DNA of 64,000 bases. It comes from Geosiphon pyriformis uo1. Taxonomy: Eukaryota; Fungi; Glomeromycota. The notes beneath the pieces are model-generated. The model did not search any database. It worked only from the letters and a program-made list of their open reading frames with translations, and was not told the DNA's origin. Location of the stretch: contig JAAOMT010000414.1 in assembly GCA_016748015.1 (NCBI GenBank), positions 214,481-278,480 of the forward strand. The letters are read 5' to 3'. Each line of letters opens with the position of its first letter. Positions within the stretch are counted from its first letter, which is position 1. Below are positions 8,417-58,034 of the stretch, in pieces. The translations under genes were made by a program, and so were the position numbers.

Positions 8417-10067
8417 GCATTATAATTTCAATTGTATTTATTTAACATATTTAATATTAAATTTATTACTTATTATAGCAGCTAAGACAACAAGAAGAAA
8501 AATTGGTTAAATATTACTCTAAAAATAATACAACTCTAATGCTCTGTACTGTATTAGATCCAAAGAAAAAATTTCATTATTTCATAAAGAAAAATTTTTT
8601 AGATAATAATATTAATAAAACAAAAAAATTATAAGTTATTAATTTATTTAAACAGTTTTATTTTCCAACTTTCACATATTAAATAAATTTTTAAAATATG
8701 TATTTATTTTAAAATAAAGTATATATTAAATATTATATCAACATTAAATAACAGTTTTTTGTTGAATGGCAATTTTAATAATACTATAGTATTAGTCACA
8801 TAATTCATATTAGAACCAAATTTTAACAATAATAAGAAAAAAAAACTTGACAAAATTGATTATTATATCTCTAAAAAAATAACTAATAAAAAAATAAATA
8901 TAATAGTATAATAGAAGATATATTACAAAAAATATTTATCTAAATTAACATTTTATTAATAACTTAATATTTAGGCATATTAAACATAATATTTTTATTT
9001 TATATGTATGATTTGTAATTATTTAGCAATCCAAAGATTATTTGTTGTTTTTAAATGCACTTTTTCTATAGATAAGAATATGATTACAGATATAAGATGT
9101 TACTGGAAGTTTTTGATCTCTTTTTTTTAATGTTGTTAATATCTGTTGGTTGTAAATTCACGTTTTTTGGAAGTAGTTGGACCTCCAATAACTGAATTTA
9201 TCTTTAAATTATCTTCTATAATTAAAACTGCTGAACTTATAAGTGGAATGGCCAATTCTGTGCCAGTTGTTTTGTATAGTTATATTGTAATAAATGTCAA
9301 TTCTTTTCCAGAAATTACTTGTCTGAAAGCTTACTAAAAATGTGTAGTTATTTTGCTGTGAAAGTTAAATTTTCTACAAGAATCTCATTTGTAGACTACC
9401 TTAATGATTATAATAAGAAAAATAAAAAAAAATAAAAAAAATGTAAAAAAAATAAGATGTTGTTAAGGAAATCGTTTTCTATTTAGGCCTGGAATCATTA
9501 ACAGGTTATTGAAATTGGTAGCTAATCAATTTCAAAACATTAATTGAGTTTTTGTGAATGTTAAATATAATAATTAAGGATTTGGTTTTTTGAATATTTT
9601 AATTTTTATTTGAATTTTGTAAAGGTATATAAAAAAGATGATTTGTTCTAATTAAGATATCTAAGATAAGATACATTTTCTTGAAAAAAGAAACTCTTCT
9701 TTTATACAACTTGTTGTAGTACTAGTCTTTGAATTTGCACTTTTCTCTTTGCTTTAATTTTAGCAAACTAAAGATATATTTTGGTAAACTACAAGTTATT
9801 TTCACAAACTATTGATTATTTCGGCCAATTTCTGCTAATTTCCGCGAATTTTTGAATATTAAATGGTTTAGAGTATTGTGTAATTTGATCATCTTAATTT
9901 CTATGATACAAATTAGATTATTAATTAAATAATAATATTTGATAATTTAATTAAATAATAAGTAATTATGAAAAATAATAATAATATATACTAATTAATA
10001 ATAGGAATTATAAGAATAATTTCATGCTAATTAATAATTAAAATTTTATGGTAACATAATTTTTTCC

Positions 10068-10545
10068 TCAAAATTGAATTCCATTAAAGTCCAAGTATTG
10101 TCTGTAATATTAAGATAATAATCCAAAATAATTGTGGTAATTTGGTTTGAAAATTGTTGAAATTTCAGTTTTATAAGCTTTCTAATGTACTAAATCTTTA
10201 TTGGGTAGAGTATTGGATTTTGTAGGACATTTTTGTAAGTATTAAATAAGTCATAGAGTTTAAAAGCTGCTCTAAGTTTGTAGTAAGTGTTTGTTGGTCC
10301 AACTGCTGTCTTGAATTCATTGTGAATTTGTTTTTGTATAGCTTTAGGAGTGCTTTGTGTTGTTTTAAGTTCTATTTTTTGTTTATATAATGTTTTTCCA
10401 ATCTGAAAATATCTATAGATAAGAATATGTTTATTGTTCTGTTCATTGAAAAATAGTAGAAGTTTTTGTTGGATCATGGCATTTGATGAAATATCAATAG
10501 AGGCAATTAAAAAATTTTTTTTTAAAGCTTGCTTTAAAAATTCTG
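10068..10545 (-). pseudogene. B1 ORF3 C-terminal part
   Basis: ORF 10190-10477 (..IYRYFQIGKTL..RAAFKLYDLF..). Its 3' end matches B2 52895-52954. Confidence 0.75.
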
Positions 10546-13500
10546 GTTGTTAATTTTTAGTAAAATAGATTAAGATTGTTGTGATTTTTCTTCTGGCTCA
10601 GGTTTTTTAAACTCAATTTCTTCTTAGTTGTTTTTGCTAGACAAGAAAATATTAAGAGCATAGTATTCTGAACACTATTTGTTATTACAAGACATAATGC
10701 ATTCTTCACATAATTGAATATTTATTTGTTTTAATCATTGAATTTGAGCTTCTTGGATTGAATAAATGTAACTTGCAATTTAGTAGTATGTTTTTACTTT
10801 ATCTTTGTAGTTGAATCCAGCTAATTTTATAGTGTATTCAATGTATTTAGCTTCTTTTATTTGACAGATATTTTTCTGTGTGGCTCTATTAATTAAAGCT
10901 ATTGCTAAATCAAAGATTATTTTAGCATCATAAGAGTAGTAGTAGAGTTTGTTGAGAGCACTGTTGTATGCTGCATCAAAAAGTGTTCTTTTTCTGACTT
11001 TTTTTGAGATTGATAGAGCATATTGATAGGTTTGGTTACATACTTTTTTTCTTATTACAATATTAATCCAGTTGTATTCTTCTGGTAATATATTTCCACA
11101 TGTGAAACAAAGAGTGTTGTCCCATTTTCCACTTTGTTTGGAGTATCCAAATTGTTCTTTATGGCATGCTTTATAATAGTAATAGATGCAAGTTTCATAT
11201 TTTTCTTCTAAAGATATGTATGCTCCCATTGATAAAAGTTTTTTCTTGTAATTTTTACATTTAAGTAAAATATAAGATAGTTGTTTTCATGGTTTTGGTG
11301 TAAAGTATTGAACAATATTTTATTCTTTGGTTTCTTTAAAGATTTTTTGTTCTGTTTTTTTTGCTCAATTGGATGTTAATTTAAGAGCCATGAAAGTTTT
11401 AATCACTGGTTTTTCTTTCTCCTCTTCAAATTCAAATATTGAGACTTTTTCTGATTATTTGTTAAAGATACTACATATAGCAGATACTCTGGTATATTGT
11501 CCTTGATATGAAATCTTTAGTTCTTGGGTTTCCCAATTTAGATTTGCATTGGTCTTAAGGAGCCAATTATTTCTGACAAAAGTTTGATATTGGGATGTAT
11601 TTATGACAAGAACTTTAACTGAAATAATAATTCTATTAATTGTAAAAAAGAAATTATCAATTTTTTCTACTGGGGTTTTCTTCATATTATTAGCTATAAC
11701 AATTACTGTTTGGGCTGGTCTGTTAATATTTCAATTGAATTGTTGTATTAATTGGTAAATAATAATACTTCTAACTAATTCACTATCTAAAATTAAATGA
11801 ATTTGTTTTTTTTTACTTTAGCTTTAGTATATATAACTGTAATTGCTTTTTGTTTATTGACTGGTATATTACTAAGCAAGAATGATAATTTATTAGCTTC
11901 AAATTCAAATAGAAATATATCTAAAAGATTGGCATTTTGAGCAATTTGAACTAATAGAATAGTATTGTTGGAAGAGTTTAATCTTAGTGCTATAGCTTTA
12001 TCTTCAAAAAGTGTAGTTTGTTGAAAATCCAGTTTCTCAGACATTGTTAGATAACTGGGTTGAGTGTAGTAGTAATTGAATCTTTGCTGACCAGAATTTT
12101 GGGGAACTAACTGATTGTTTGGGTTGATTCTATTATTGTTATTCTGAAATTAATTTTGAGGTATGAATTAGTTTTGTTGAACCAATTTTTGAGCAGATAT
12201 TTGATATTGTTAAATGAATAGTGATTGGTATTGTTAAACTGATAAAGACTGTTGATATTATTGTTATATTGGTTGTAAAGCAAATTAATTGTAATTGTTT
12301 TAATTTTGTAATCTTAGTAAGTAAAAAGTTGGTAGTAAAAATTAGTAATAAGATTGTTGTGGTTGCAAATAATATTGATTATTCTTGTTTTGTTGGTTTT
12401 TTTGCATCTTTTTACAATCTCATTTTCAATGTCCTGAAATTTTACAATAGTGATAGTTTTATAGTTGGTTGTTGAATAATAAAAGATAGTTGTTTTGATT
12501 GTGTTATTGGAGTGATTGATATCTTTGTGGTTGTTGCTGTTGTTGTTGGTTAGTAAAATAGTTTTTGACCTTCTTTGTGAATTGTTCAATTTTTTTTTTA
12601 GCTGCTAAGCTGGTTTTTCTGATAGCAAAATTCACAAGTTTGATATGGTTTGCTTTTTCTATTGCTATTTCATAGTTTTTTACATGTCAAATAGCTGTAG
12701 CTAAGTCTTCTAAAGCATGAGGGCAAACTTTCTTAATTAATTTGTTTTTTAATTCTGCAATAAACTGATCCAAAATTTGGACATTGAAATAATATTTGTT
12801 GGTTTTTAATTGTCAAATTTGTCAGAAAAGTTTGTTGAATTTCCCAAGATAAATTATAACAAATTCAGATAATTCTTGTTTGATGTTTCGAAATTGGTTT
12901 TGGAGTATAATAGATGTGTTGTTGTTAGTATATTGTTATAAAAAAGCATTTTTAAATGCTTGCCAGTTTTTAAAGAGTGTATTTAAGTTTTCAAATCATT
13001 TTTTTGATGTTTCTTGGAGAAAGTATGAGATTGCTTTTAGTATTTTTGCTGCAGTTTATCTATTTGTATCTCCTGTTTTCTAGACTTTGTCAAGCCATTT
13101 TTATGAACTGGTATTAGCATCTTTTTCTGTGAATTCAGTGATTTTTGCAATGTATATGGTTGTCATTTTTTCTTTATTTTCTGTAGTTTCTTCTTGTTCT
13201 GATTTGGTTTTTTTACTTTCTAAGTTCTTTGAATAATTACTTTGATTTTCTTCTAAATAATCAAAAAGATTGATGCTGGTTAATATTGGTTCTTGCTGTT
13301 AAGTAGGACTTTTGGGTAATTGAAAATCTTCTAGTCTTAAAAACCAAATAAGTAATAAATTTGGAGTTTGTAATTGAGCAAGTGAAATTGGATATAGTAT
13401 AATAGAAAGTAATAATTTAATACTGGTTTCTTGTTTAGGTGTTTGCAAGTGTTTGGCAGTTGTTTTTGGTGTGTTGTAAGTTGTATAACTAACTTGAAAT

Positions 13501-19171: not shown

Positions 19172-22100
19172 TGTTATGGGTTAGAGTAACAAATTAATGG
19201 ATAGCAAGAAAGAACAGATTTGTAAGATAATGAAAGAAATCAAAGGAAATTCAACTTCAAAGAGTAAATTAAATAAGTATGAATTCAATATGTAAGATTA
19301 GTCTTATAAAATATCTCAGTCATTATACTTTCAAAAAGATAATCAGGGAATTTGAAAGTAGAAAAATAGTCCATACTATCAACAAATAATTACACACTGG
19401 TATAATTTTATGTCTTATGTTAGTGCTTTTAGAATTTAATATTAGGTATTAAATGTATTCTTTAGTTATATTTTATTCAATAATCTTCAAATATTACAAT
19501 TATACATTTTAGGAAAAAAGTAGAAAATAACCAACAAGTAATCTTTTATCCTAAGATGTTTAGATACTTAAAGGTAGAAAAAGGGAAATTAGCAATAAGA
19601 GAAAGATTGAGATGAAAGTTGTTATTTTATTTATTTTATTTCCTTGATTTTTGACATGTTTTTCTACAGCTAAGAGATTCATTGCTTATATAGCTATTAA
19701 AAGTGATTAATGATCAGATCAATAATCATTATCTAAAAATAAGGTGGTTAATTATATGACATTAGTGGCTAATACATATGATAACTAATAAAAAGTATGG
19801 ATTTTAATTATAATATTATTCTTTTCAAAGAGATTAAGCTTTAGTGAAATCAAGCTATTCATGAGATAATCTATTTAAAGGGTTTTGTCTAATTCAAAGC
19901 TAACTAATTTGTTGAAATCTTTTGTGGATAGAATATATAATACTTGAGGTGAAATGAGTTTTGTATTCAAGAGATTAAATTTTTGTATTAGAGTTTTGGC
20001 TCTTTTAGCAATAGTTAAAACTCTTAGAACATCTAACTGTATAATACCCAAATTTTTTGCCTGTATCTTTGAAGTTGTTTTTTTCATGAATTTTATATTT
20101 TTTATGATTTTATCAAGGCAACCATAGAGTTTTAATTGTCTTTTATATAACAAATTTTTGTTTATAAGCAAGATTTCTTAGAGTGTTTTTCCAATTGTGC
20201 TGGAAAATAAAAATATTGTTGCTGTTATACTTTCTAGTAGATATTTATCTATTTTGTTACTGATTTTTTCTCTTTTTGTAGTGGTTTTTTTTGGTTTAAT
20301 AACAGTATATGTTCTATTGTTATCAGTTATAATGGTTTGTTTTCTAATGGTCAAAATAGCATTTGAGTAGTTTTTGATTTAATACTTCTGAAGAGTATAG
20401 AAGGTGTTTTAAATGTTTTGATCCAAAAAATAATTGTTCATATTGATTGAAAATACCTCTGTTTTGGAAATAGTGCATTTATTTATACTTGATTTTTGCT
20501 GATCATTTGGGTCAGTATTATCACAATAAGCAACCAATTAGATTATTTATAATATTTTTTGAGTTATATATCATGAACAGAACAATCATTAAAGATTGTT
20601 TTAAATTAATCTTGAAGAATATAAAAACCATTGTTCAAAACTTTGTTGATTAAAAAAAGTCTTTTCTATCAGCTAAAAAATTTATTATCATAAATATTGT
20701 TTTTGTCTGAATAGTATTCTAATACTAAGTTACCAACACTTAAGGAAAGTGTTTTATAGGTTTTTTTCTTCTTAAGCTTTTTTTAAAACTGTTTTATCTT
20801 TTCAAAAGCAATTATTTGTGCTTTTATTAAAAAGTCAAGAATAGTACCAAGTTTTTTTTGCAAAATGTCTTTATAATTTCTTCAAAGAGTATTGTTTCAA
20901 TGTCAGTTTCTATTAGTAGTGTTGTTATGTATCTATAGAGCAGATAAAAAGATTCATAACTTGTTATGTTATGATTTACAGTTCTATAAACAAATAAAGT
21001 TGAAAACAGTACTTTGTTCTATAAGTTTGTTTCTTTACTGGTTTTGGTTAAGGTTTTACATAGTGTTCTATTAAAACGTTTTACTAAGTTATTTATTTGA
21101 GAGTGATAAAAAAAGAAAAATTTATAACATATTCTCATTTTTTTACTAAGTTCTTTAACCAGTATATTGAGAAAAACTCTTTCTTTAATAAAAGTTCTTT
21201 GGGGCAATTATAACAACAGATGATATTTTCATAAATGAAATTGGCTATTGAGACTGCTATTTGGTCTGAAGTGGCTCTTACTTCTACTCACTTTATAAGA
21301 TAGTCAATAGCTGTAATAATGTATATATTACTATTAGGAGTTATTATTAAAGATCTAACAACATTTATACCAATTTTGTTAAATGATTAACCAATAAAAA
21401 TTGAATAAATATCTTCTTTTTGATTGGATTTGCCTTTTTTTTGACAGATATCACAGATTTTGATGTATTTAGCAATGTTTTTTCTCAAGATAGATCAATA
21501 ATAGCAAGTTAAAATTTTCTGAATTGTTTTTGTTTTTTCAAAGTGTCTAACTAATGAGTTAGCATACATGTTGTATATTACAATTTTTTTCTTTAAATTT
21601 GATAACTCTTTGAGTAGTCAAGATCTTTCTTGTTTTTTTTATATAACTGGTTCTGGTGGATCAAATAGAAATTTGATTGTTTGCACAAATGTTTTCTTTG
21701 CTGTTGAGTGTAGTCTGGTGGGTATTGTTCTTTATCTAAAAATTTTATTAGGGCAGAGTAGTTGTTTAAGTTTATTATTATGTTTGTTTATGAAGGAGTT
21801 ACTAATAATTAAATTGGTTTGATTGAGAGATTATACTATCACTGGATGATAAGTCTGAAAAAAGCATCAGTATTTTAATGATTAGCTTCTTTGTAATATT
21901 GAATATTATAGTCAAATTTATCTAGATGGAGTATTTAGTGAGTTATCTATTTATGTTCTAGCTTTTTTTTGTTATACAGCCAAATCAAGACTTAATAATC
22001 TGTTACCACTAAAAATTTTATACCAAGAAGATATTGATTCCAATAACTAATAGCCCAAACTACTGTTAAGCATTCTTGTTCAGTAATTGAATAATTTTTT

Positions 22101-22607: not shown

Positions 22608-25600
22608 TGTTACAGGTAATTATTTGGAGTCTCAAAGCAAATAACAAACCTGTAACTTGGTGTTTAATTGATATAATGTTGTTGGGTGTTGGTTTCTGAA
22701 GATTTTGGTTTCTGAAGGTTTTGGTTTATTTAAAAGTTTTTATATCTGAAAGTTTTGTTAGAGTTTTTTGTATAATAGACAGAGATTCAATAGTTGTTTT
22801 CAATAGCCTCTTGGAATCACAATTCTATTGAATTTCTTTTTTAGTGTGGTGGCCAGTAATCTAACAGAGATGCTTTTCTGATAAGCTATCCTTAAATTCT
22901 CAATTCTTATACCCTTTTTTTGGGGTCTTTTATCAGATTATCCTTGATGTCAATAATTTAGTACTTAATTCTCAATTAATTAGTAAACACAACAAAATCA
23001 AGAAAAGAAAATAAAAAAGATAAAGAAAAGATAAAAAAAATAAGCCAAGGCAATTACAAGTTAGTATTCTGTCAATAGCCATAATAAAAAATTATTGTTT
23101 TAATGTGATTAAATATTGATAGTGGAGAATGAATTGAGATAGTAAATAATTATTTATTAATATTTGTGAATGAAAAAATTGCTTAGATTAAATTTAAATT
23201 GAAAGATTTGTCTTTTTTTTTAATGCTACTGCTATATATACATAATTGAGATTTCTTAATTTCTCAATTCTTCACACCAAGAATCCTAGAATTTCTGGAA
23301 TTCTGCAATTTCTTTTGAGAGGAATTCTGGAATTCTGGAATCCTGCAATTCCTAGAATCTTGCAATTTCTCTGAAAAAAATCCTGAAATTCCACATTTAC
23401 TATGGTTACTTCTAATTGGTTAATTTATATGCTAATATACTTCCTATATTCTATGAGTAACATTATTTCCTTCTTTTAATATTGAGCTCTGTTGAGATCT
23501 CCTAATTCTATTTCTCTGTCTTTGAGTATTTCTTGAACTTCTTTTTCGAGAATTACTTGAGTTATTTTGTTCTGTAATTCTTCAAATTGGACATTGATTA
23601 TTTTTTCCATTTAGTTACTGATAATAGAGTCTATTGCTGAATTGAGTAAGATTTCTGGTTAGTCTTAAAATCCAACTTGTAATTGATAGATGGCTCATGC
23701 TTATGTAGTTAGATTGTTTTTTCCCACAAATTTCTTGAGTTGTTGTAGTATTTCTGAATCAAATAATTGCTTTGTATTATCTGTATATAAGTTCTAGATA
23801 TTTAGGTGTTGTCCCAAGTGAAAATAACAAAAGTTTCTGAAAAATTGTTGTATTCACTACTTTCAAGTTTCTTTAGTTAATTCTTAATATGAAGTGGCTG
23901 TTGTTGATTCTTCTATTGCCAATTTTATTTTCAAGATTATTATGTCAATAGTGTTTTTTGGTTTCTTCTGTACCTTGTATTTAGGTATTTTTCAAGTATC
24001 TTTGTATTGAATAGTTTGTTGGTTGATGATAATTTTCATATTTCATTGTTGAATTAATTGAAAAAGTTGTTGTGCTAGTGAGTAAATATTGTCAGTAATT
24101 TCCATTTTTCTGATGTTTTCTGTTATGTCTACTCTGTATTTATATTTTTTTGGTCAATCCATTTAACATGTTTGTGTTAATGATAATGATTGGTTTTAAA
24201 TCTCATAGAATTTCATCTGGTCTGACTAGTATTCTCTGTACTCTCAATTGTGAAATATTATTGGTAAATAATAATGCTATACTGTGGTATGGTTTTAGTC
24301 AATCTCTATGTGCTGTTTTGATTAAGATTTTGTTGTTCAATCTTAATTTATAAGCTCCATTTCTTAGAATTTCTTCTATGTAAAATAGTCTGTCCTATTT
24401 GGGGTCAAATTTTTCATTCTATTGTTTTTCTGCTTTGGTATGATATAAGAGTACTTTGTCTCTAATTTTGAATTCAATTGGTTTATCTGGTAGTTGGTTA
24501 TTGTGTCTTTTTTTTTGTTTTTTTTGTGACTTTTGGATGCTATTAGCTGCTTTTCACCATTTGTTTCTAGTGTTTCTATTAAGTCTTATGTTTTTTTCAA
24601 CAATGGTTTTTGAAAATTTTCTTCTGTTATTGGTTCTGTTGAGTATGTTTTAACTTCTATCTCAACTGGTAATATTGCTATTCTACTATATACTAATTCA
24701 AATAGCGTTGTTTATATAGTGTCTTGTTTCATTGTCTTGTAAACAAATAATACTGATAGTATAAACAAATCCCATTTGTCCTGGTTTTTTTGGCTGATTT
24801 TGGCAATTGTTTTACACAATGTTCTATTAAATCTTTCTACTAGCCCATTGGTTTGTAAATAATATAGTAATAATAATAGTCTTTTTATCCCAAATTTTTG
24901 ACTTAATTTTGTCAATGTTCTATTCACAAAGTGAGTTTCTTCATCTGATAATAATTTTTTTGGACATTCATGTTGACAGATCAAATCTTGATGAACAAAT
25001 TTAGCAATGAATTCTGCATCTGCTCTTTAAATAACTTTTGCTTCTGGCTATTTTGTGAGATAATTCATGGCTACTGCAATATATCTGTTGCCTTTGCTGG
25101 TGATTGTTAATGGTCTGACTAAGTTAATTCAAATGTAATCAAATAGTTGTCTTACTTTAATTGGTCTCAATGACTTACTAGGTTTTTTTTTTCTTTGACA
25201 AATATTACAATTTTGAACGTATTGGATGATATCTGAATATATTGATGGCTAATAGTATCTTTTTCTGATTCTTTCTATGGTTGCTTCTTTGTGAAAATGT
25301 TCTGCTGTTGGATTTGAGTGCATGTTAAATAATATTGTCTCTTTCTCTGATTCTGTAATTATTCTGGTTGGTTGATCTGAATTTCTTTTGTTCTTTTGGT
25401 AAAGTATATTTTGATGATTAATAAAATACTTTGATTGTTGTTTTATGTTGTTTTGTTTTTTTTGAGATAATTTCTCTTTGAACTGTTGAGTATTTATATA
25501 GTGCTGGAATTGTTGATATTTTTGTGTATTTATTTTTTGTTATATTTTTGTTTTTGACTGTTTAAATTTTGTTATATTTTTGGATTGCAATGTTCTTAAA

Positions 25601-27179: not shown

Positions 27180-29167
27180 TGTTACAGGTGATTATTTGGG
27201 GTTTTAGAGCAAATAACAAATCTGTAACTTGGTGCTCAATTGATATAATAGAGTTGATTTAAAGGTATCATTATTTGAAGGTTTTGGTTGAGTTCTTTGT
27301 ATAATAGACAGAAATTCAATTGTGGTCTTTCCAGTAGTCTCCCAGAATCACAATTCTGTCAAATTTTTTTCTCAGCATAGTGGCCAGTAATCTGGCAGAG
27401 ATGCCCTTCTGGTAAGCTATTCTTAAATTCTTAATTTCTATATCCTTTCTTTGGAGTCTTTTATTAGGCTATTTTTGATGTCAATAACTCAGTGCTTAAT
27501 CTTCAATCAATTAGTAAAACAAAAGAAATAACAAAATAAAAGAAAAATAGAAGCAAATAAAAGAAAAGAAAGAAATAAGCCAATGTGATAAAAGTTAGTA
27601 TTCTGTCAATAACCATGATCAAGAGCTATGGTTCCAGTGTGGTTAAATATCAATTACTATCCACATAAAGTATTGATAGTGAAAAGTGGATTTGAGATAG
27701 TAAATAATTATTTATTTGATATTTGTGATGTGGAAAGTTGCTTAGATTAAATCTAAACTAAGAGATTTGTTTTTTCTACTTCTAATGCTACTGATATATA
27801 TACATAATTGAGATTTTTCAATTTCTCAATTTTTCATACCAAAAACCCTAGAATTCCTGGAATCCTGCAATTTTTTTAAAAGGAATCCTAGAATTCTGGA
27901 ATCCTGCAATTTTTTGTATGAGAATTCTAAAATTTCTGGAATTCTGCAATTCTTTTGAGAAGAATTCTGGAATTCCACATTTACTATGGCTACTTCTGAT
28001 TGGCTAATTTATATGCTAATATACTTCCTATATTCTATAAGTAACATTATTTTCTCCTCTTTAATATTAAGCTCTATCGAGATTTCCTAATTCTACTTCT
28101 CCATCTTTGAGTATTTCTTGAACTTCTTTTTCAAGAATTATCTGTGCTATCTTGTTCTGTAATTCTTCAAATTGAGCATTGGTTATTTTTCACATTTGGT
28201 TAATAGTAATAAAGTTCATTTCTGGATTGAGTAAAATTTCTGGTTGATCTTGAAATCTGGTGTGTAGCCAATAAATGGCTCTTGCTTATGTGGTCAAATT
28301 GTTTTTTCTTACAAATTGTTCCAGTTGTTGCAGTATTGTTGTATCAAATAATTATTTTGTTTTATCTGTATACAAGCCCTAAATGTTCAAGTGTTGTCTT
28401 AAATAAAAGTAACAAAAGTTTTTTGGAAATTGTTGTATTCACCAATTTCAAGTTTCTATAGTCAACTCTTAATATTGGATGACTTTTGGTTATGTTTCTA
28501 TTGCCAATTTTACTTTTGTGATTATTTTGTCCACAGTGTTTTCCGTTTTTCTCTGTATTTTTTCTCATGGTTTTTTTCTGGTGTCTGTATATCTAATAGT
28601 TTGTTGGTTGATTGTAATTTCCATCTTTTGTTGTTGGATTAGTTGAAAAAGTTGTTGTGCTAGTGAATGAATATCATCAGTAATCTCTATTTTCTGCTGT
28701 TTTTTGTCATGTATACTGTGTCTTTATATACTCTTTTGGGTTGTTCAATTTTATGTGTTTGGTTTAATGATTATAATTGGTTCTAAATTTCGTGAAAATT
28801 TATCTGGTTTGACTAAGGTTTTCTGTACTTCTAATTGTAGAATATTACTGGTAGATGATGATGCTATATGGTGATATTGTTTCAGTCAATCACCATGTGC
28901 TGCTTTGGTTAAAATTCTGTTGTTTAATCTTAATTTATAAGCTCTATTTCTAAGAATTTTTTTTATGTGAAATGGTCCATCTCATTTGGAGTCAAATTTT
29001 CTACTCTATTGTTTTTCTACTTTAGTATGATATAGAAATACTTTGTCTCCAATTTTGAATTCAACTGGTTTCTCTAGTAGTTGGTTATTGTGTCTTTCTT
29101 TTTGTTTTTCTTATAACTTTTGTATGTTATCAGTTGCTTTTTGCTGCATGTTTTTTAATGTCTCCAT
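27180..29167 (-). mobile_element. A2: 3' end of a Ty3/Gypsy element (LTR 27180-28046, ORF3 28061-28690, IN C-terminus)
   Basis: LTR closely similar to the A1 LTR, PPT, GPY/F-module region at 28900-29167. Confidence 0.92.
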
Positions 29168-30067
29168 TGTTACAGATGATTATTTGGGGTCTCAAATCAA
29201 ATAACAAATCCATAACTGGGTACTCAATATCTTAACAATACTAGTGTTATAGATATATTGGTTATATTTGAAGGTTTTTTAGAGTTGAGCCCTTTGTATA
29301 ATAAACAGAGATTCAATAATGATGTTATTGGTTGTTGAATTGTGTTCCCAATTTTTGTTTTTAGCTTGGTGGCCAGTTTATTCTGGCATTCGTGCCCTTC
29401 TAGTAAGCTATCTATTAATATATATATAATTTTACCCTTATTTCTGGGTCTTTTACCAGGCTATCTATGATGTCAATTACTCAGCACTTTAATCCTTAAT
29501 CAGTTAGTATTCAACAATAAAAATCAAAGAAAAAAAGAAATAAAAGAAAAAAAGAAAAAAATAAGCCAAGGCAATATGCAAGTTAGTATCTTGTCAATAG
29601 CCATGATTCAGAGCTATTGTTCCAGTATAGTTAAGTATCAATTACTATCAACATAAAGTGTTGATAGTAAAAAGTGGATTTGGATCGTGAATGATTTATT
29701 TATTTAATATTTGTAGATAGAAGATTTCCAACTAAAGGATTCTAATCTTTCTACTTCTAATACTACTGCTATATATACATAATTGATGTTCTATGAGATT
29801 GCTCACATTTCTGAGTGATGTGCTATGATTTCTTGAGCAATGCTCACATTGCTGAGTGATGTGCTCTTATTTTTTAATATCACTCCACATTGCTGAGTGA
29901 TGTGCCATGTTTTCTGACATTGCTTTACATTGCTGAGCAATGTGTCATGATTTTTGACATTGCTCCATATTGCTAAGCAATGTGCTCATGTGCTAAATAC
30001 TATTCTCTTATTGGTCTGCTATTTTCTGTATCTGTTTTCTTTTTATGAGTAACATTATCTTCTCCTT

Positions 30068-31571
30068 TTAATATTGAGCTCTATTGAAATCTTTGTTTTG
30101 AATTAATTTTAATACTTCTTTTTCAAGTATTGTTTGTTTAACTCTGTTCTTTATGTCTTCTATTTGTGTATTTTTCATTCTTCCCTATTGGTTAATGGTT
30201 ATGGTTTCCATGTCAAAGTGTAACAGTATTTCTGGATAGTTCTGAAATATGTTGTGTAGTCAGTAAATTGTTTTTACATGTAGTATTGAGTTCGTCTTTT
30301 TTCCAATAAATTCTTCAATTTGCTGTATTATGTTTTGGTTAAATATCCTCTTAGATTTGTCAATATACAATTCTTGAATATTCAACTTTCGACCTAACTG
30401 GTAGTAACAGTATAATATAGGAAGTTGTTCTGTCCATTGCTTCCAATTCTCTTTTGTAAGTTCTTTTGTTAGTGCTGTTACGGGATGGTTTTCTTGTTAT
30501 ATTTAATTGCTGATATTCCGCTTTAATTGCAATCAGTCTTCCGTGAGTTCCTCAATTCTATTTGTGTAATAATGTCACTGTTATACTGAAGGCTTTCTTT
30601 TTACTGTTGCGATGTAAGTTATTCTTTAATTCTTGATTGTTATGTGTGTTTATGTACTTCTTCTCAGAGGCTGAACTGAAATCTACCCACTGTCTGGGGT
30701 CTTCTCTGAGGCTATCCTTGCAATTGCCTGATGTGTTTCTCTAATCTAAAAACACAGAATGTTAATGGTCTTTAGCACTTTTCTAATTCTCACAATAAAG
30801 CTTTTATCAATTAGTAACAACGTGAATAATCTTGATCAAGGATTATTCTTTCAAGGGATTCAGTTGATGAATGATAGTTTCATTCAATAAATAATACAAG
30901 TAAGTTTCTTAATACTTTGGGTTGTGATAGTTCCGTTTTAAATATTCTTTTTCATTTCTTTTTGATTTAGAAAGGTTTCTTGGGATATTTAATTTGAAAG
31001 TATGATTTAAAGTGGAGTTTGTTGGATAAAATTGGATCTGTTGCTTGATAAGTTATGATTTTTATTACTTGATTGATTATTTCCCAATATTAAAACTACT
31101 GTATATATACATGTTTGTAGTTCTACGAGAAAATACTTTCTTTTTGATATTTCAACCTGGTGTTTGCTGCTATCACCAGTTGGTGTTGGCTGCTATTGTG
31201 AACTGGTGCTTGCTACTATCACGAAATGGTGTTTGCTACTATGTTAATCATTACCTTTCTAAGATTATTACTATGCTATATTATGATTGAATAATTTGTA
31301 TTATTTTTATGATTCTTTTTGCTAAATTCTTAAACTGTAACAGTGCCATAAGTATTTTCCCAAAAGTGTTCTTTACTTTTTCTATTATATTATCTGACCA
31401 GTTTTTATTATTCTTTGGTAACTACTAATATGGTGTATTCTTTGTCTTCCTTTTGGTATTTTGATAGCAAATTGTTTGGTTGTTAATGATAATTTCCATG
31501 TCTAAAGATTATTGACTTAAGGCCTGGAATAATTGTTGAGCTATGGCATGAATATGATCTGGTATTTCCAT
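30068..31571 (-). pseudogene. A3 ORF3 (interrupted by LTR D)
   Basis: ATG at 31571 (MEIPDHIHAIAQQLFQ..), ..LYCYYQLGRKL..KTIY*LH..DFNRAQY*, stop abutting the PPT. Confidence 0.8.
30579..31342 (-). mobile_element. Solo LTR of a fourth family (D)
   Basis: TGTTATA...TGTAACA inverted termini. TATA context (CTGTATATATACAT, ~31099) like the A LTRs. Short tandem repeats at ~31155-31245. Interrupts the ORF3 frame. TSD not clean. Confidence 0.75.
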
Positions 31572-32998: not shown

Positions 32999-33028
32999 CT
33001 TTTGTTATATTTTTGGATTGAAATGTTT

Positions 33029-36000
33029 TTAGATTTGTTTCATTCACGACAGTCCATTGGCATTTCCATTGTCTTTTCCCTTTTTATAATGTACTGTATA
33101 ATTAAATGATGAAAGTTCATTTTCCATCTGGCATGACAATTGTCTGCAAATTTTTGTTTTTGGATTGATGTTAATTCTTTGTGATCAGTGTATACTTCAA
33201 ACTTTTGGCTCAAGTATTCCTTCTATTTGCTGACAGCCTAATAGATAGCTAAGTGTTCTAATGCTGGAGTTCCATAGTTTTTTTTAGCTGGACTTAAACT
33301 TCTACTGGCATAAGCTACTGGATGTTCTCTTTCATCAGATTTTTTCTGTGAAAGTACTGCTTCCAATGCTTGACCTGATGCATTAGTAGTAATGATGAAT
33401 GATTTGTTGTGATCTGGATACATTAATACTGAAGCTTAGATAAGCTTTTTTTTCAATGTGTCAAAAGCTTCTTGTTGAGCTTTAGTCCATTTATACTTTA
33501 CATTCTTGGTTTGTAAATAGTAAAGTGGCTGAGCTAGTTTAAAAAAGTCCTTGATGAAGCAATAATAGTAGCCTGTAAATTCCAAAAATGCTCTTAGTTC
33601 TGTTAAGTTGGTTGGTACTGAAAAGTTTTTAACTACTTCGATCTTGTCTGGATCTGTTTTGATTCTATTTTTGCTCACTACATGTTCCAAAAACTTGAGT
33701 TCAGTTTTTCCAAAGAAACATTTGGTTGCATTTAGCTTTAGTTCGGCTCTTCTTAATCTTTCAAACACTTGTTGGAGATGATACAGATGATCATCAAATG
33801 TTTTTGAGAACACATTGGTGTCATTCAAGTAAACAACTACTGATTTCCACAGTAATCTAGTATAGACAATTTCCATAAGCTGTTGGAATGTTGCTGGAGC
33901 ATTTATCAAGCCAAATAGCATGACTTCAAACTCAAAATTTCTTTCTCTTGTGGTAAATGCTGTTTTTTCTTTGTTGGTTGGATCCATGGCTACTTGTCAG
34001 TATCCACTATCTAAATTTAATGTTGAGAATCATTTATTTCCACCAAAAGCATTGAATAGTTCTTAGATTTTTGGAGTCGGATAACTATTACCTTTAGTTA
34101 CTCTATTCAGTTTTTGATAATCCACACAAAAACGGATTTTTCTATTCTTTTTTTGGACTAATACTACTGGTGATGACTATGGATTCATTGATGGCTGAAT
34201 TAGCTCATTATCAAGCATCCGATTGATTTCTTGACAAATAATCTCATGACTAGCTGGTGGTACTCTGTATGCTCTTTGTTTAATTGACATTGCATCTCCA
34301 GTTTTGATCTGATGCTGGATGATGTTGGTTCAGCCAAATTTATTTTTGCTAGCAAAAATGTCATTGAAATTGTTGAGTAATATCTTGAGTTGCATTTGTT
34401 GAAGTGGATCTAGATTCCCCATGTTTATTTGTTCCAATTGTTCTGGTTGGAGCAGATAATATTTACTTCTTCCATAAATGGTTTGTAATGTAATGTCCAC
34501 ATATCCACAAAGCTGTGGAAAATCTGGAATGTGGTTTGGTGGTTGATCCTCAACTTTGGTGGTTAAATATTCAATAATAGTTCCCTTTGGTATTTTGATG
34601 ATATTTTCAGTTGTGTTATAGATAAAAATTTTGATGTTTTTGGGACTATTGGTTGAGATGTAGAGATTGGTGAGTCCAATCTCTTCTGATTTACAAATGG
34701 TGGCTTCTGCTTCAAACAATTGAGCTTGATTCTTTACTTCTTTTTTTATAGCTAACATATACTGGTCATATAACAGAATAGAAATTGTTTGACAAATTGA
34801 AATAATTTCTCCTTTGTCAACAATTTCTTCCTCTGTTATATTAACTGGTATATTTATTCTACCCATTAATCTAAATCTTTGTATCTCTCTAGCTGTAATC
34901 CCTAATTCCTCTCTGTTTCTCACTAACACTAATTGAGCTATTTTCACCAGAGGTAAGAATATTGCCTGTGCTATTTTTTCATTTGGCTCTATAATATAGG
35001 TCTTTTCTGAATTATTTTGTAGCATGGTGATGATATTTTCTATGTATTCTGCATTAATTATTCCTCCTCTGATGTTGATTCCTTTTTTTGCTAAACTACT
35101 TCTAAATGCTAATTGAACCATGATTGTTGCTGGGATTTCCAGAGCTATTTTGAGATCAATACATGTGCACAAATTTGGTTCCAATTTAATGGCTTCTTTT
35201 CCCAGATATCTCAGATCAAATCCTGTATCGGTATCATGTATGTGTTCTGGCATAATACCTTCATTATTATCACTATACCATTTGAGTTTCTGCTCCTTAG
35301 AGAGATCAGAAAGCGCAATGTATATTTCGGAGTTTGAATTGAAGTTTGAATCATTGATATTTTTGTTGCCATATTGTGTGGAGCTGAGAGTGGTGTTTTT
35401 GTCATCATTGTTGTCAAAGTTTGAATTGGAATTAAAAACTGATTCCAATTCTGATGCACAGCTGCTAATTGGTTCTTTTTCTGAGATTGTGTAGATCATG
35501 CATGATGGTGAATTGTAAATTAAGTCACACTTATTACAATATTGAAAGTTGCAGAGAATTAAGCAATATTGACATAACTAAGTATTTAACTGTTCTAAAT
35601 GCTGCTTTTGTTCTTCTCTGGTAGGTGCTAGTTCTTGGTAATATTCATAGAATTGTTTTGGATCTAGGAAATTTATGACTGGTTTTGGGTCCCAGTCGAG
35701 TTCTATAGGTTCAAGTGGGTTATTTTTAATTGTTTTTATCTTTTTTGGTGTCACTCCTTCGATTTTGGCAAGTGCCATTCGCCAAATTTTATTATCATCA
35801 TTATGTGGGCATCCATTCAGACATTTGACGGCTTATCTTTAGGCAGCGTCTATGAGCATTTTTTTTCTCACCCAGTTGCTTATGAAAATCATGTATTGAC
35901 ACAATTTGTCACATGTTTCTCCTCACCCAGAAATGTTGTTCCACATTCTTTTATCCAGAAGAGTTTCTCCACAAGCCAAGCATGGTTTATTGTTCCATTT

Positions 36001-38322: not shown

Positions 38323-39196
38323 TATTACAAGTGATTATTTGGGGTGTTGAATTAAATAACAAACCCATAACTTGGTGCTAAAAGTTATTCACATTGATGT
38401 TATTAATCTAAAGGTTTTGTATTTAAAGGTTTTGTATCTGAAGGTTTTGGATTAAGTTCTTTGTATAATAGACAGAGATTCAATAGTTGTTTTATCCGTA
38501 GCTTCCCAGAATTACAATTCTGTCAATTCTTCTCTTGGCATGATGGCCAGCAATTTTTTGGTAAGTATTCCATATCTTCTGTACGTGTCCTATTCTCTCG
38601 CAGGGGTCTTCTACCAGACAATCCTTGACATCAGTAATCTAGTGCTTTATTTAACCAATTAGTGCACAACAATAAAATCAAAATAAAATAAAGAAAAGAA
38701 ATAAAAGAAAATCATAAATAAGCCAAGACAATTTTACAAGTTAGTATTCCATCAATAGCTGTGATCAAGAGCTATTGTGCCAGTATGTTTAAGTATCAAT
38801 TATTATCAACATAGAGCGTTGATAGTAGAATTAAGTTTAAGATACCAAATAGTTATTTATTGTGTTTGGAAGGTTGTCTAGATCAAATCTAAACTAAGAG
38901 GTCTGTCTTTTTTAGCTTCTAATACTACTGCTATATATACATAATTGAGATTCCTTAATTTCTCAATTTTTCACAACAGGAATTCTGCAATTCCTGGAAT
39001 CCTGCAATTCCTTTGAGAGGAATCCTGGAATTCTGGAATCCTGTGATTCCTCATGAGAATTCTGTAATTTCTGGAATTCTGCAATTTCTGAGAGGATTTC
39101 TGGAATTCCATATTTTACTATGTCTACTTCTAATTGGCTAATAACTATGCTAATAGATATTCCCTATATTTCTATGAGTAACATTATTCCCTCCTT

Positions 39197-39821
39197 TTAA
39201 TATTGAGCTCTGTTGAAATCTAACTCTGTTAATTTCTCTTGAAGTATTTTCTGAATTTTATTTTTGAGAATTACTTGTTATTTGAGTCTGTAATTCTTCA
39301 AATTGAGCATTGGTGATTTTTCCTAATTGATTACTGGTAACCGTGTCCATTGCTTTGTTGAGTAAGATTTCTGGTCAATCCTGAAATGCTGTGTGTATTC
39401 GGTAAATGGCTCAGGCCTGTGTGGATAAGTTGTTCTTTCCCACAAAATGTTCTAATTGTTGTAGTATTTTGGTGTTAAATAATTGCTTTGTTTTATTCGT
39501 ATATAGATTCTGGATATTCACGTGTTGTCTCAAGTAAAAATAACAATAGTTTTTTGGAAATTGTTGTATTCATCAATTCCAAGTTTCTTTAGTCAACTCT
39601 TGGTATAGTGACTCTTTTGTCAACTCTTTTATTGCTAATTTTACTTTTGCCATGATTTTGTCAATGGTATTTTCTGTTTTTTTCTGTGTTTTATGTGGTG
39701 ATGTCTTTCTAGTGTCTTGATATCAGATGGTTTGTTGATTAATTGTAATTTCCATCTTTTGGTGTTGAATTAATTGAAAGAGTTGTTGTGCTAGTGAGTG
39801 GATGTTGTCTGTAATTTCTAT
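39197..39821 (-). pseudogene. A4 ORF3 (~208 codons)
   Basis: (M>I)EITDNIHSLAQQLFQ..NYCYFYLRQHV..A*AIYRIH..LGKITNAQFEEL. TATATAAAG lies at 39854-39862. Confidence 0.8.
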
Positions 39822-39846
39822 TTTTTTGATATTTTTTGTTGTGTTT

Positions 39847-41257
39847 ACTATGTCTTTATATATTCTTTTGATGGATTAATTAACGTGTTGTTGTCAATAA
39901 TGATGATTGGTTTCAGATCTTGTGGAATCTTCTCTGGTTGGACTAGTATCTTTTGTATTCTTAATTGTAGAATATTATTGATAGATGGTGGTGTAATGTT
40001 GTGGTATGGTTTCAATTAATCTCTATGTGCTGCTTTGGTTAAGATTTTGTTATCCAGTCTTAATTTGTAAGCTTTATTCCTTAGAATTTCTTTTATGTGA
40101 AATGGTCCATCCTATTTGGGGTCAAATTTTCTACTTCATTGTTTTTCTGCTTTGGTATAATGTAAGAGTACTTTGTCTCCAATTTTGAATTCAACTAGTT
40201 TGTCTGGTAGTTAATTATCATGTCTTTCTTTCTGTTTCTCTTGTGACTTTTGTATGTTTTTAGCTGCTCTTCTTCATTTGTTTTTCAATGTTTCCATTAA
40301 GTCATATGTTCTTTTTAACAATGTCCTGTGGAAATTTTCTTCTGTTATTGGTTCAGTTGGATATGTGTTAATCTCTATCTCAACTGGTAATGTTGCTGTT
40401 CTACCATATATTAATTCAAATAGTGTTGCTTGTGTGGTGTCTTGCTTCATTGTTCGATAAGCAAATAATACTGATGATATGAACAAATTCTATTTATTCT
40501 GGTTTTCTTGGCTGAGTTTTACTATTGTTTCACACAATGTTCTATTAAATCTTTCAACTAATTCATTGGTTTGTGGATAGTATGGTAATGATAGTGGTCT
40601 CTTAATTTCGAATATTTGGCTTAGTTCTACTAATGTTCTATTCACAAAATGGGTTCTTTGGTCTAATAATAATTCTTTTGGACATCCATGTTGACAAATC
40701 AGATCTTGATAGATGAATTTGGCAACAGATTCTGCATCCACTCTTTGAATTGCTTTGGCTTCTGGTCATTTAGTAAGATAGTCTATGGCTACTGCAATAT
40801 ATCTGTTGCCTCTGCTGGTAATTGTCAATGGTCTGACTAAATCAATTCCAATATGGTCAAATGGTTGTCCCACTTTGATTGGTTTCAATGGTTTGCTGGG
40901 TCTTGTTCCTTCTCTTCTTTGACAAGCATCACAATTTTGCACATATTGGATGATATCTGAATACATCAATGGTCAATAGTATCTCTTTCTGGATTTTTCT
41001 ATGGTTGCTTCTTTATGAAAATGTCCTGCAGCTGGATCTAAGTGCATGTTAAATAGTATTGTCTCTTTTTCTGGTTTTGTAATTACTCTGGTTGGTTGAT
41101 CTGAATCTTTTCTATTTTTCTAATAAAGTATATTTTGGTAAGTGATAAAATATTTGGATTGTTGTTTGATTCTCTTTTGTTTCAGTTGAGATAATTTCTT
41201 CTTGAACTGTTGAGTATCTATATAATGTTGAAGTTGTTGATATTTTTGTGTGTTCAT
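39847..41257 (-). pseudogene. A4 integrase ORF
   Basis: ATG at 41257. ORF fragments 40766-40969, 40490-40741 and 40274-40486. Confidence 0.92.
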
Positions 41258-44410: not shown

Positions 44411-45388
44411 TGTTACCAGACAAAATTAGAGATATTATTTAGCATAAAATTATCTTATAATTTCTATCATTAATTAGCATATATTATCATTTCAAATTAT
44501 TACTTATTACATTACAAAAATGTCCGAAATTATCATTTAATTAATAACCCAAATTGTACACAACACAAATGTAACCTAATTGCAATGATCAATCATGCAA
44601 TACCCCGAACTATGTAACATTCAAAAGTTTGCCAAAATTTATAGAAATTTGCCGAAATAATTGATAGTTCACCAAAATATCTAATAGTTTGCAGAAATAA
44701 CTTGTAGTTCACCGAAATGTATCTTTAGTTCAGTGAAATTGTAGAAAATAACAAAGTTCAAGTTCATATAATAGTGTTATGACAAGTTGTATAAAAGAAG
44801 AGCTTCTCTCTTCGAGAAAATGTATCTTATTTTAGATTTAACAATTAGAATCATCCTTTATACACAAAACAAAATAAATATCAAATAATTTGAAAAATTA
44901 AATCCTGAATTATTTCACTTTTGAAATTAACTAATTCTTATGAAACAGTTTGAAATTGATTAGCTACCAATTTCAGTAAACTGTTAATAACTCCAGGCCT
45001 GAATAGAAAACGTTTCCCTTGACAGAATTCTATTTCTTTTACATTTATTTTATTTCTTTTCTTTTCTTATTACAATCATTAGGGTAGCTTACAGATGAAA
45101 TTCCTGTAGAAGAGTTGACTTTCACAGCAAAGTAACTACACATTTTTAGTGAGCTTCCAGACGAGCAATTCCTGGGAAAGAGTTGACATTTACTACAACA
45201 TAACTACATAAAGTAACTGGCAAGAAATTGGCCATTCCATTTATAAGCCCAGCAGTTCAAATTATAGGAGATAATTTGAAGATAAATTCAGTTACTGGAG
45301 GTTCAACTACTTCCTGAAAACGTGAATTTACAGCAAATCAACAACAACAACATTCAAGAAAAGAGACCCAAAAACCTCCGGTAACATT

Positions 45389-45406
45389 TGGTGCTCTCCC
45401 ACAGAA
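45389..45406 (+). promoter_or_regulatory. Primer-binding site of B2
   Basis: TGGTGCTCTCCCACAGAA starts 2 nt after the 5' LTR and is complementary to a tRNA ending ...GGGAGAGCACCA. Confidence 0.85.
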
Positions 45407-45431
45407 ACAACACAGCAAAAACAACTTCAAA

Positions 45432-51048: not shown

Positions 51049-51097
51049 AAAACAAAAACCAACACTCAACTTAACCAACCAAAAGAGCCAACAAACA

Positions 51098-52483: not shown

Positions 52484-52605
52484 TTTAAATTTATTATTAT
52501 AGTTATCTTCTTATAATTTAGAAACAATCTCACAAAAACAAAACAAAAATAACATAAAAACCCATGCACCAAAAAATAATTTTCTTTTATTTCAAATTGC
52601 TTATA

Positions 52606-52954
52606 ATGACTATTCCTTAAAACATTCAACAATTATCTCAAAAACTAATGTTAGCTTTAAAAACAATATCTGAATTATCCATTACTGTTACTGGAAACCA
52701 TATTAATTATACCCAAACAGAAGTAGTTACAAATTTAGCCCCAAATTCACGAAAATATCACCTGTATNNNNNNNNNNNNNNNNNNNNNNNNNNNNNNNNN
52801 NNNNNNNNNNNNNNNNNNNNNNNNNNNNNNNNNNNNNNNNNNNNNNNNNNNNNNNNNNNNNNNNNNNNNNNNNNNNNNNNNNNNNNNNNNNNNNTTTGGA
52901 TTATTATCTGGAAATAACAAACAGTACTTGGACTTCGACGGAGCTCAGTCTTGA
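52606..52954 (+). pseudogene. B2 ORF3 (middle lost in assembly gap)
   Basis: MTIP*NIQQLSQKL..LSITVTGNHINY aligns with the family A ORF3 N-terminus. Ends ..DFDGAQS*. Confidence 0.7.
52768..52894. other. Assembly gap (127 N)
   Basis: Run of N. Confidence 1.
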
Positions 52955-52962
52955 GGAGAAGG
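52953..52962 (+). promoter_or_regulatory. Polypurine tract of B2
   Basis: GAGGAGAAGG ends 3 nt before the 3' LTR. Confidence 0.85.
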
Positions 52963-53941
52963 TTATGTTACCAGACAAAATTAGAGATATTATTTAGCAT
53001 AAAATTATCTTATAATTTCTATCATTAATTAGCATATATTATTGTTTCAAATTATCACTTATTACATTAGCAAAAATGTCTGAAATTATCATTTAATTAA
53101 TAATCCAAATTGTACACAACACAAATGTAACCTAATTGCAATGATCAATCATGCAATACCCTGAACTATGTAACATTCAAAAGTTCGCTGAAATTTATAG
53201 AAATTTGCCGAAATAATTGATAGTTCACCGAAATATCTAATAGTTTGCAGAAATAACTTGTAGTTCGCCAAAATGTATTTTTAGTTCAGCGAAATTGTAG
53301 AAAATAACAAAGTTCAAGTTCATATAATAGTGTTACGACAAGTTGTATAAAAGAAGAGCTTTTCTCTTTGAGAAAATGTATCTTACTTTAGATTTAACAA
53401 TTAGAATCATCCTTTAAACACAAAACAAAATAAATATCAAATAATTCGAAAAATCAAATCCTGAATTATTTCACTTTTGAAATTAACTAATTCTTATGAA
53501 ACAGTTTGAAATTGATTAGCTACCAATTTCAGTAAACTGTTAGTGACTCCAGGCCTGGATAGAAAACATTTCCCTTGACAGAATTCTATTTTTTTTACAT
53601 TTATTTTATTTCTTTTCTTTTCTTATTACAATTATTAAGGTAGCCTACAGACGAGATTCCTGTAGAAGAGTTGACTTTCACAGCAAAGTAACTACACATT
53701 TTAGTGAGTTTCCAGACGAGCAATTTCTGGGAAAGAGTTGATGTTTACTACAACATAACTACATAAAATAACTGGCAAGGAATTGGTCATTCTACTTATA
53801 AGCCCAACAGTTCAAATTATAGGAGATAATTTGAAGATAAATTCAGTTACTGGAGGTTCAACTACTTCCTGAAAACGTGAATTTACAGCAAATTAACAAC
53901 AACAACATTTAAGAAAAGAGACCCAAAAACCTTCAGTAACA

Positions 53942-57127: not shown

Positions 57128-58034
57128 TTTTGGATGGGGTTATTGGTGCTGGTTCTCTGTAGGATTATATCTCACAGGGAGCACCAAATGTTATGAGTAA
57201 TTATTTGGAGTGTTGAATCAAATAACAAACCCATAACTTGGTGCTAAAAGTTATTTACATTGATGTTATTAATCTGAAGGTTTTGTATCTGAAGGTTTTG
57301 GATTGAGTTCTTTATATAATAGACAGAGATTCAATAGTTGTTTTATCTGTAGCTTCCCAGAATTGCAATTTTGTCAATTTTTCTCTTGGCGTGATAGCTG
57401 GCAATCCTCTGGTAAGTATTCCGTATCTTCTGTATGTATTCTACTCTCTCGCAGGGGTCTTTTACCAGGCAATCCTTAACATCAGTAATTTAGTGCTTTA
57501 TTTAACCAATTAGTGCACAACAATAAAATCAAAATAAAATAAAGAAAAGAAATAAAAGAAAATCATAAATAAGCCAAGGTGATTTTGCAAGTTAGTATCC
57601 CATCAATAGCCGTGATCAAGATCTATTGTTCTAGTGTGTTTAAGTATCAATTACTATCAACATGGAGTGTTAATAGTGGAATTAGATTTGAGATACCAAA
57701 TAGTTATTTATTGTGTTTAGAAGGTTGTCTAGATCAAATCTAAACTGAGAGGTCTGCCTTTTTCAGCTTCTAATACTACTGCTATATATACATAATTAAG
57801 ATTCCTCAATTTCTCAATTCTTTACAACAGAAATCTTGAAATTCCTGAAATCCTGCAATTCCTTTGAGAGGAATCCTGGAATTCTGGAATCCTACGATTC
57901 CTTGTAAGAATCCTGTAATTCTTGGAATTCTGCAATTCCTGAGAGGAATTCTGGAATTCCATATTTTACTACGTCTACTTCTGATTGGCTAATAACTATG
58001 CTAATATATATTCCCTATATTTCTATAAGTAATA

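Follow-up and report, generated by a model that had tools for sequence, protein, structure and literature searches.

The window analysed here, a stretch of 64,000 nucleotides from a contig of the Geosiphon pyriformis genome, is AT-rich, with a CpG observed/expected ratio of 0.21, and the bulk of it consists of nested LTR retrotransposons; LTR sequence has been reported to make up 41.2% of the Geosiphon genome (PMC11952901). Pfam scans of the frames of element B2 (45318–52243) and of the frames of the A-type elements returned Retrotrans_gag/Ty3_capsid, aspartyl protease, dUTPase, RT_RNaseH, Integrase_H2C2 and rve, and RVT_1 was matched in element A4. The domain order between the LTRs, namely gag, aspartyl protease, dUTPase, reverse transcriptase (RT), RNase H and integrase, is that of Ty3/Gypsy (Metaviridae-type) elements, with the dUTPase lying between protease and RT. 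Downstream of the dUTPase, the segment 42522–43475 gave a weak match to Spuma_A9PTase (E 2.7e-5, above the 21-bit cut-off) and may be a degenerate second domain of protease type in front of RT; an upstream aspartyl-protease domain is seen in other copies. A tandem repeat with units of about 63–64 bp occupies positions 71–710 of the window.

The LTR pairs of the window elements are 83–95% identical. In element A3, the 3′ LTR (38330..39181, minus strand) is 91% identical to the 5′ LTR (57196..58032, minus strand), which is followed by a primer-binding-site-like stretch, TTTGGTGCTCC, and the polypurine tract (39182..39199, minus strand) opens with the stop codon of the frame described below. The pair at 29168–30054 and 58999–59840 was assigned to A4. 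The pairs of C (83%), A4 (88%), A3 (91%) and B2 (95%) are nested between 19172 and 61221, with identity climbing inward, as expected from successive insertion. The same primer-binding-site-like stretch lies behind the 5′ LTR in A3, A4 and B2 (57160–57195, 58960–58998 and 45387–45420), and no tRNA was found within the window. The A3 LTR also carries two TATA-like sites (57310–57318 and 38928–38937), one of which is the same TATATAAAG 9-mer found in the spacer upstream of ORF3 (see below).

Between the integrase stop codon and the polypurine tract, these decayed, dUTPase-bearing elements carry a sense frame of 209–239 codons, hereafter ORF3. The initial annotation had described such a frame, of about 200 codons, in A1–A4, B1, B2 and C; it was recovered at full length, in decayed form, in A1–A3, split in A4 and partial in B1 and B2, whereas C dropped out on profile scoring (see below). 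Every window copy is decayed. The copies in A1 (23476..24105, minus strand; 12 in-frame stops), A2 (28061..28690, minus strand; 10 in-frame stops) and A3 (39197..39821, minus strand; five TGA stops) represent one homologous frame whose stop lies inside the polypurine tract. The A3 copy is 87% identical to P0002, an intact natural protein of 209 aa, and has a 2-nt deletion near 39275 that is specific to it and absent from the other copies; the start codons of A2 and A3 read ATA. The diverged A4 copy consists of a 5′ part (31345..31571, minus strand) and a 3′ part (30068..30500, minus strand; 45% identity to P0002), parted by an insertion of about 860 bp; from their position and from the LTR pair assigned to A4 we infer that both belong to one element. 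The insertion (30480–31345) carries a short internal repeat, and is likely to be LTR-derived sequence of a related family, because part of it (30459–30746) matches, at 61–87% identity, the tails that follow ORF3 in gene models of family E (see below).

Two further copies belong to family B. The deleted element B1 retains the 3′ two thirds of the frame (10049..10555, minus strand); the region upstream is deleted, and B1 therefore offers no comparison for the TATA-like box discussed below. In B2 (52606..52984, plus strand), the 5′ end (52606–52743) and the 3′ end (52893–52973) are kept around a gap of 127 N (52768–52894) that hides the middle of the frame. The end of ORF3 differs between the families: in family A the polypurine tract opens with the stop codon, and in family B the frame crosses the tract and continues for a few codons into the 3′ LTR. 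The stretch immediately preceding the polypurine tract (39199–39215 and 52936–52952), with a GAGCTCA core, is common to both and is read in different frames, as DFDGAQY-stop in A and as TELSLEEE into the LTR in B; because both families keep these bases in different reading frames, they point to a cis element. Part of this stretch is complementary to the primer-binding-site-like TTTGGTGCTCC.

For the comparisons that follow, intact natural proteins, P0002 (209 aa) and P0192 or P0166 (239 aa), were used in place of a reconstructed consensus. The A3 frame had 96 matches, all of them a 'hypothetical protein' of Geosiphon pyriformis, with up to 87% identity; the B1 frame had 160, and the 120 listed were again all Geosiphon pyriformis 'hypothetical proteins' (up to 74–78% identity). 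The alignment of families A and B covers the whole frame, over 186 columns, with 23% identity (hhalign probability 84, E 7e-6). Shuffled sequences reached the real cross-family score in 0/500 trials in three of five tests, and in 4/500 and 5/500 in the other two; the homology between A and B appears real but distant. A combined A and B profile, searched against 1.84 billion sequences, retrieved 114 representatives at E ≤ 0.001. Inspection of the ones with less than 62% identity to sequences already matched, and a look-up of 20 proteins, added the Geosiphon families E and F and three metagenome groups, represented by the ENA or JGI proteins P0253, P0258/P0316 and P0306/P0317–P0320 (5/5 candidates); P0253, P0258 and P0317 are intact. 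Core identities among the eight groups are 13–47%, and colinear homologs exist in at least five Geosiphon families and in the three metagenome groups. We infer that P0253 and P0258 are ORF3 proteins of LTR elements too, because both end in an ELSLEEEIMLP-type tail, the same tail that family B reads across its polypurine tract. The repetitive Glomeromycotina family mentioned in the initial annotation was not recovered, the named matches being from Geosiphon only.

The frame of element C stands apart. It is a near-open frame of 188 codons (19875..20441, minus strand) between a decayed integrase and the 3′ LTR, with about two to three internal stops in 188–189 codons, compared with 18 and 14 in the other frames. 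It failed to score against every ORF3 profile (441/1000 shuffles did as well), and its membership of the family was not upheld; it could be distantly related to ORF3, or a third ORF of separate origin.

In all five copies that keep the integrase junction, a stop codon precedes ORF3, and there is no contiguous frame with integrase. The distance from the integrase stop to the ORF3 start is 34, 60, 26 and 60 nt in A1–A4, respectively, and 122 nt in B2; in A3, the 3′ part of the integrase frame (39848..40600, minus strand) differs in frame from ORF3 and meets its first stop at 39850–39848. Among 318 gene models examined, 21 have integrase motifs and none of these (0/21) spans the junction from the end of integrase to the start of ORF3. 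ORF3 could nonetheless be a targeting or tethering domain that is joined to integrase rarely, by readthrough or frameshift, in the place taken in chromoviruses by the chromodomain. It does follow integrase directly, the B2 integrase frame has no match to chromodomain families in Pfam, and two of the copies, A2 and A4, have their integrase stop in frame with the ORF3 start at a distance of 60 nt, the 20 intervening codons being open in A4, so that low-level readthrough might occur in an arrangement of this type. However, the offsets of A1 and A3 differ, the A2 spacer holds two further stops, the phase of the TATA block is not the same in A2 and A4, the B2 spacer of 122 nt is AT-rich, and homologs of other families have a methionine of their own as first residue at this position; the junction is kept in none of the 21 integrase-containing models. 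We consider a recoded integrase extension improbable.

In the three full-length pairs among A1–A3, the proportions of differences at codon positions 1, 2 and 3 were 0.23–0.24, 0.12–0.14 and 0.25–0.34; the order position 2 < 1 < 3 held in every pair (P 0.004, 0.0005 and 0.0005), as assessed by a context-aware permutation within base and CpG context. P was ≤ 0.004 in 14 of 15 ORF3 pair tests, the sole exception being the short 5′ part of A1–A2, and the LTR control gave a null result (0/3 pairs). The dN/dS values of ORF3 in A1–A4 were 0.17–0.26 with all codons and 0.28–0.45 when CpG-type codons were left out. With transversions only, comparisons with the 3′ part of A4 gave 0.37–0.39, against 1.3–2.7 for the other two sense frames; among A1–A3 the transversion-only values have wide intervals, which include 1 in two of three pairs, and by the NG86 method the +1 frame of ORF3 is also below 1 (0.44–0.51). 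Between subfamilies, indels inside ORF3 are multiples of three, except for the A3-specific 2-nt deletion, whereas those in the spacer are not. Purifying selection was found in A1–A4 by both the codon-position test and dN/dS with CpG codons excluded. All window copies are broken, as would suit a frame that is left over and neutral, or a piece of host sequence captured not long ago; against this stand the codon periodicity and dN/dS, the colinear homologs and the intact P0002 and P0192. A neutral remnant is ruled out by the codon-position test, dN/dS and the profile homologs, and we give the reading as a whole hardly any credence. ORF3 is, with very high confidence, a separate and real gene.

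Between A3 and A4 the transversion difference is 0.24 in ORF3 versus 0.01–0.06 across integrase; A4 is near A1 and A3 across pol (31700–34600) and far from them in ORF3 (31345–31571) and the LTR. This pattern suggests either exchange of a module or fast evolution of the ORF3–LTR end. Genes in conflict with the host tend toward fast divergence, and the much faster divergence of ORF3 than of integrase could be read as the trace of a counter-defence or trafficking protein that binds host proteins rather than nucleic acid, be it the silencing machinery, the nuclear pore or factors of inter-nuclear movement in the coenocytic hypha. The same divergence may, however, come from recombination of the ORF3–LTR module, and the invariant residues, a basic loop and a helix arginine (see below), fit contact with nucleic acid at least equally well. 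We regard such a host-protein role as unlikely.

The spacer between integrase and ORF3 holds a candidate promoter. A TATA-like box about 35–40 nt upstream of the start had been noted in A1–A4 and C; the block is indeed present in all five, but the 8-mers (TATAWAWR) begin slightly further away, counted from their first base, at −39 in A1 (TATAAATA), −40 in A2 (TATATAAA), −41 in A3, −42 in A4 (TATATAAA) and −46 in C (TATAAATA), with a second one in C at −110. The A3 block, TATATAAAG (39854..39862, minus strand), 41 nt upstream of the ORF3 start, is a candidate internal TATA box. A2, A3 and the far more diverged A4 all carry the block as TATATAAAGA, and we argue that it is constrained because A4 retains it although the third codon positions of A4 differ from those of A1–A3 at about half of the sites; A1–A4 are not independent as evidence for it, and in A3 it also reads as Y-K-D codons in the ORF3 frame. 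TATA-type 8-mers have a background of 11 in 9879 nt of pol (1.1 per kb) and turn up in 6–17% of shuffles of the 65-nt spacer. B2 had been set apart from the A-type box, and it does carry a different sequence, CATAAAAA, at −53 (52553..52560, plus strand); this is a family state and not a decayed TATA, being the majority state of family B, with no other letter reaching 10% there among 421 DNA contigs. In 27 of 65 A-family gene models, the start is placed at an in-frame ATG 10 codons upstream. Only 11 nt separate this ATG from the first T of the TATA-like box, which would be too near to serve it; the ATG presumably arises from ACG by CpG decay, and the window copies read ACA or ATA there. From the conserved block and its position, an internal promoter of its own for ORF3 is a candidate that we favour slightly.

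As stated in the initial annotation, the ORF3 protein has no hydrophobic transmembrane or signal stretch (the highest 19-residue hydropathy is 0.27–1.44 in six proteins, and 0.27–1.33 in the five intact ones) and is predicted to be mainly helical. The AlphaFold2 model of P0258, built on an alignment of 44 sequences, has a mean pLDDT of 76.6, with core blocks at 85–96. Its N-terminus is a low-confidence helix and β-hairpin, followed by a basic disordered linker; the confident core comprises helices at 82–95, 100–119, 126–141 and 146–160 and a long C-terminal helix. The predicted helical core, at about residues 80–205, would contain a conserved helix with the motif Y-x-Y-[FY]-x-[IL]-G, then a basic loop, G-K-[TN]-N, and a helix with R-[LI]-[YH]-x-x-F; among the conserved columns are Y102, Y104, I107-G108, G142-K143-T144-N145, A152, R155-L156-Y157, F160, G181 and F188. 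Segment 142–160 has a net charge of +2 to +4 in 9/9 representatives and the 39–53 linker is positive in 8/9, while the pI of the whole protein spans 5.8 to 9.9. From this anatomy, we consider it fairly probable that the ORF3 protein binds nucleic acid.

Foldseek gave no match at E ≤ 0.001 against the PDB or against predicted viral proteins, and neither search brought up a DNA-binding fold such as the helix-turn-helix; Pfam scans of ORF3 members gave no family above cut-off, and PHROG and PDB sequence searches gave no match of note. The position and sense orientation of ORF3 are those of env and of the additional ORFs of plant elements (PMC7264820, as far as that account goes), and an env-like or movement glycoprotein would sit in the same place. 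The signal or transmembrane segment of such a protein is missing, however; ORF3 proteins have one to three cysteines and about 220 residues, the soluble model is all-helical, and no viral fusion protein was found, by sequence or fold, in the Pfam, PDB or viral fold searches. An env-like identity is effectively refuted, and we attach a vanishingly small probability to it. A separate, selected, non-env, mainly helical ORF, as the initial annotation proposed, is supported.

The likeness to DUF1016_N/DUF3102-type helical domains, which the initial annotation had pointed to, survived in part. Among the Pfam matches of family B, DUF1016_N (PF17761) came up most often, in 7/47 members, with a best E of 0.015 and below the 32.8-bit cut-off; P0192 scored 14.1 bits, and 3/44 members matched in a wider alignment. 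In hhalign against a profile of seven bacterial sequences, 61 core columns aligned with a probability of 3.7% and E 0.012, and 2/585 block shuffles did as well. Family A alone gave nothing against the DUF1016_N profile, as did the single E. coli YhcG N-terminus as a comparison, and DUF3102 was absent from the Pfam scans. DUF1016_N precedes the YhcG-type PD-(D/E)XK nuclease and is described as having no known function (PMC1189080, in the part consulted). It shares with ORF3 the spacing Y-x-x-I-G, three helices, R-L-[YF]-x-x-[FY] over about 60 columns; in contrast, the N-terminal 100 residues and the C-terminal helix of ORF3 are unmatched, and the intact proteins of 209–239 aa match no nuclease family in Pfam. 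The likeness is a weakly supported but non-random lead, and not membership.

The preferred reading combines these elements: ORF3 would be a separately promoted, soluble, trans-acting regulator that binds nucleic acid. RNA would begin in the spacer after integrase, from the TATA-like box, and run to the poly(A) site of the 3′ LTR, yielding a short subgenomic mRNA with a leader of roughly 10–15 nt; the protein would then act in trans on the LTR or internal-promoter DNA of its own family, and would switch on or maintain its expression despite heavy methylation of the genome, in the manner of foamy-virus Tas. The complete chain is put forward tentatively, at somewhat less than even confidence, and a role specifically as DNA-level activator or anti-silencing factor is a little more doubtful still.

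The basic helical anatomy would equally fit an RNA-binding factor, made separately, with a task in the export, protection or coating of the genomic RNA, like CERV/Rev or a second nucleocapsid or coat protein. In the LTR retrotransposon Cer1, the non-env accessory protein CERV is reported as required for export of genomic RNA (PMC10309623, in the part consulted), and an Atlas language-model feature search put the closterovirus coat protein at the top of its list for P0192, with a score of 0.93 and 159 shared features. That match is marked weak, however (recognition 2085, under the 2300 mark), and P0002 had none; coat and nucleocapsid proteins are absent from the best 50 viral fold rows, and CERV is made from a spliced mRNA, whereas B2 has no AG between the pyrimidine tract and the ATG. 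The closterovirus coat protein itself (PF01785) gained no support from the other searches: Closter_coat is absent from the Pfam scans of members, and the viral fold search returned none among its best 50 rows and none passing E 0.001. We see an RNA factor as a possible but rather unlikely alternative to the trans-acting regulator.

Whichever function applies, a conserved non-env accessory protein is a small, expressible candidate for self-regulation or silencing evasion of the Geosiphon elements, and several hundred Geosiphon gene models annotated as 'hypothetical protein' are explained as copies of a retrotransposon ORF3 (96 and 160 matches). Speculatively, and with low confidence, an old fungal Ty3/Gypsy lineage may act as a complex retrovirus without env, having an internally promoted regulator with a new helical fold, of distant YhcG/DUF1016 N-terminal descent, and reactivating itself in a methylated, multinucleate host, which would have aided the rise of LTR sequence to about 41% of the genome.

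Cases of sense extra ORFs after pol are reportedly known from rotifers. The term aORF-3S covers additional sense-strand ORFs that LTR retrotransposons carry downstream of pol and before the 3′ LTR (PMC7264820), and ORF3 is such a frame, lying in sense between the pol stop and the 3′ LTR in many copies; the two are alike in position, orientation and spread over copies and families. According to what that source describes, most of the plant aORF-3S resemble env and have transmembrane segments, and splicing occurs in some; in contrast, ORF3 is soluble, fungal and without a Pfam family. For LTR retrotransposons of fungi, the usual description includes no more than gag and pol (PMC2864245); the survey in question covers chromoviruses, and one of its figure legends mentions additional ORFs of unknown function in some elements. 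Its fungal Gypsy element PosPlaTy3-5 has a dUTPase between protease and reverse transcriptase, the same position as in the window elements. No description of the ORF3 family was found among the papers listed by the literature searches.

Three systems offer functional parallels, as far as the cited accounts go. The foamy-virus Tas (Bel-1) protein is a DNA-binding activator made from an internal promoter (PMC8670036). Like ORF3 it is a 3′ accessory gene, the promoter of ORF3 being a candidate and its nucleic-acid binding predicted; unlike it, the foamy promoter lies within a retroviral env, and no sequence or fold link between the two was found. In Tor3b and Tor4b of Oikopleura, env is expressed from an internal promoter, Penv, mapped by 5′ RACE (PMC4402516); this is likewise a third ORF, transcribed from within pol or, in Tor4b, from the intergenic space after pol, but its product is a transmembrane glycoprotein, whereas ORF3 has no membrane segment. 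CERV of the C. elegans element Cer1 is, like ORF3, a non-env accessory protein of an LTR retrotransposon, with a spliced mRNA and a demonstrated role in RNA export (PMC10309623). Extra 3′ ORFs as such are known; ORF3 is a soluble family from fungi for which neither the PDB nor predicted viral proteins offered a matching fold.
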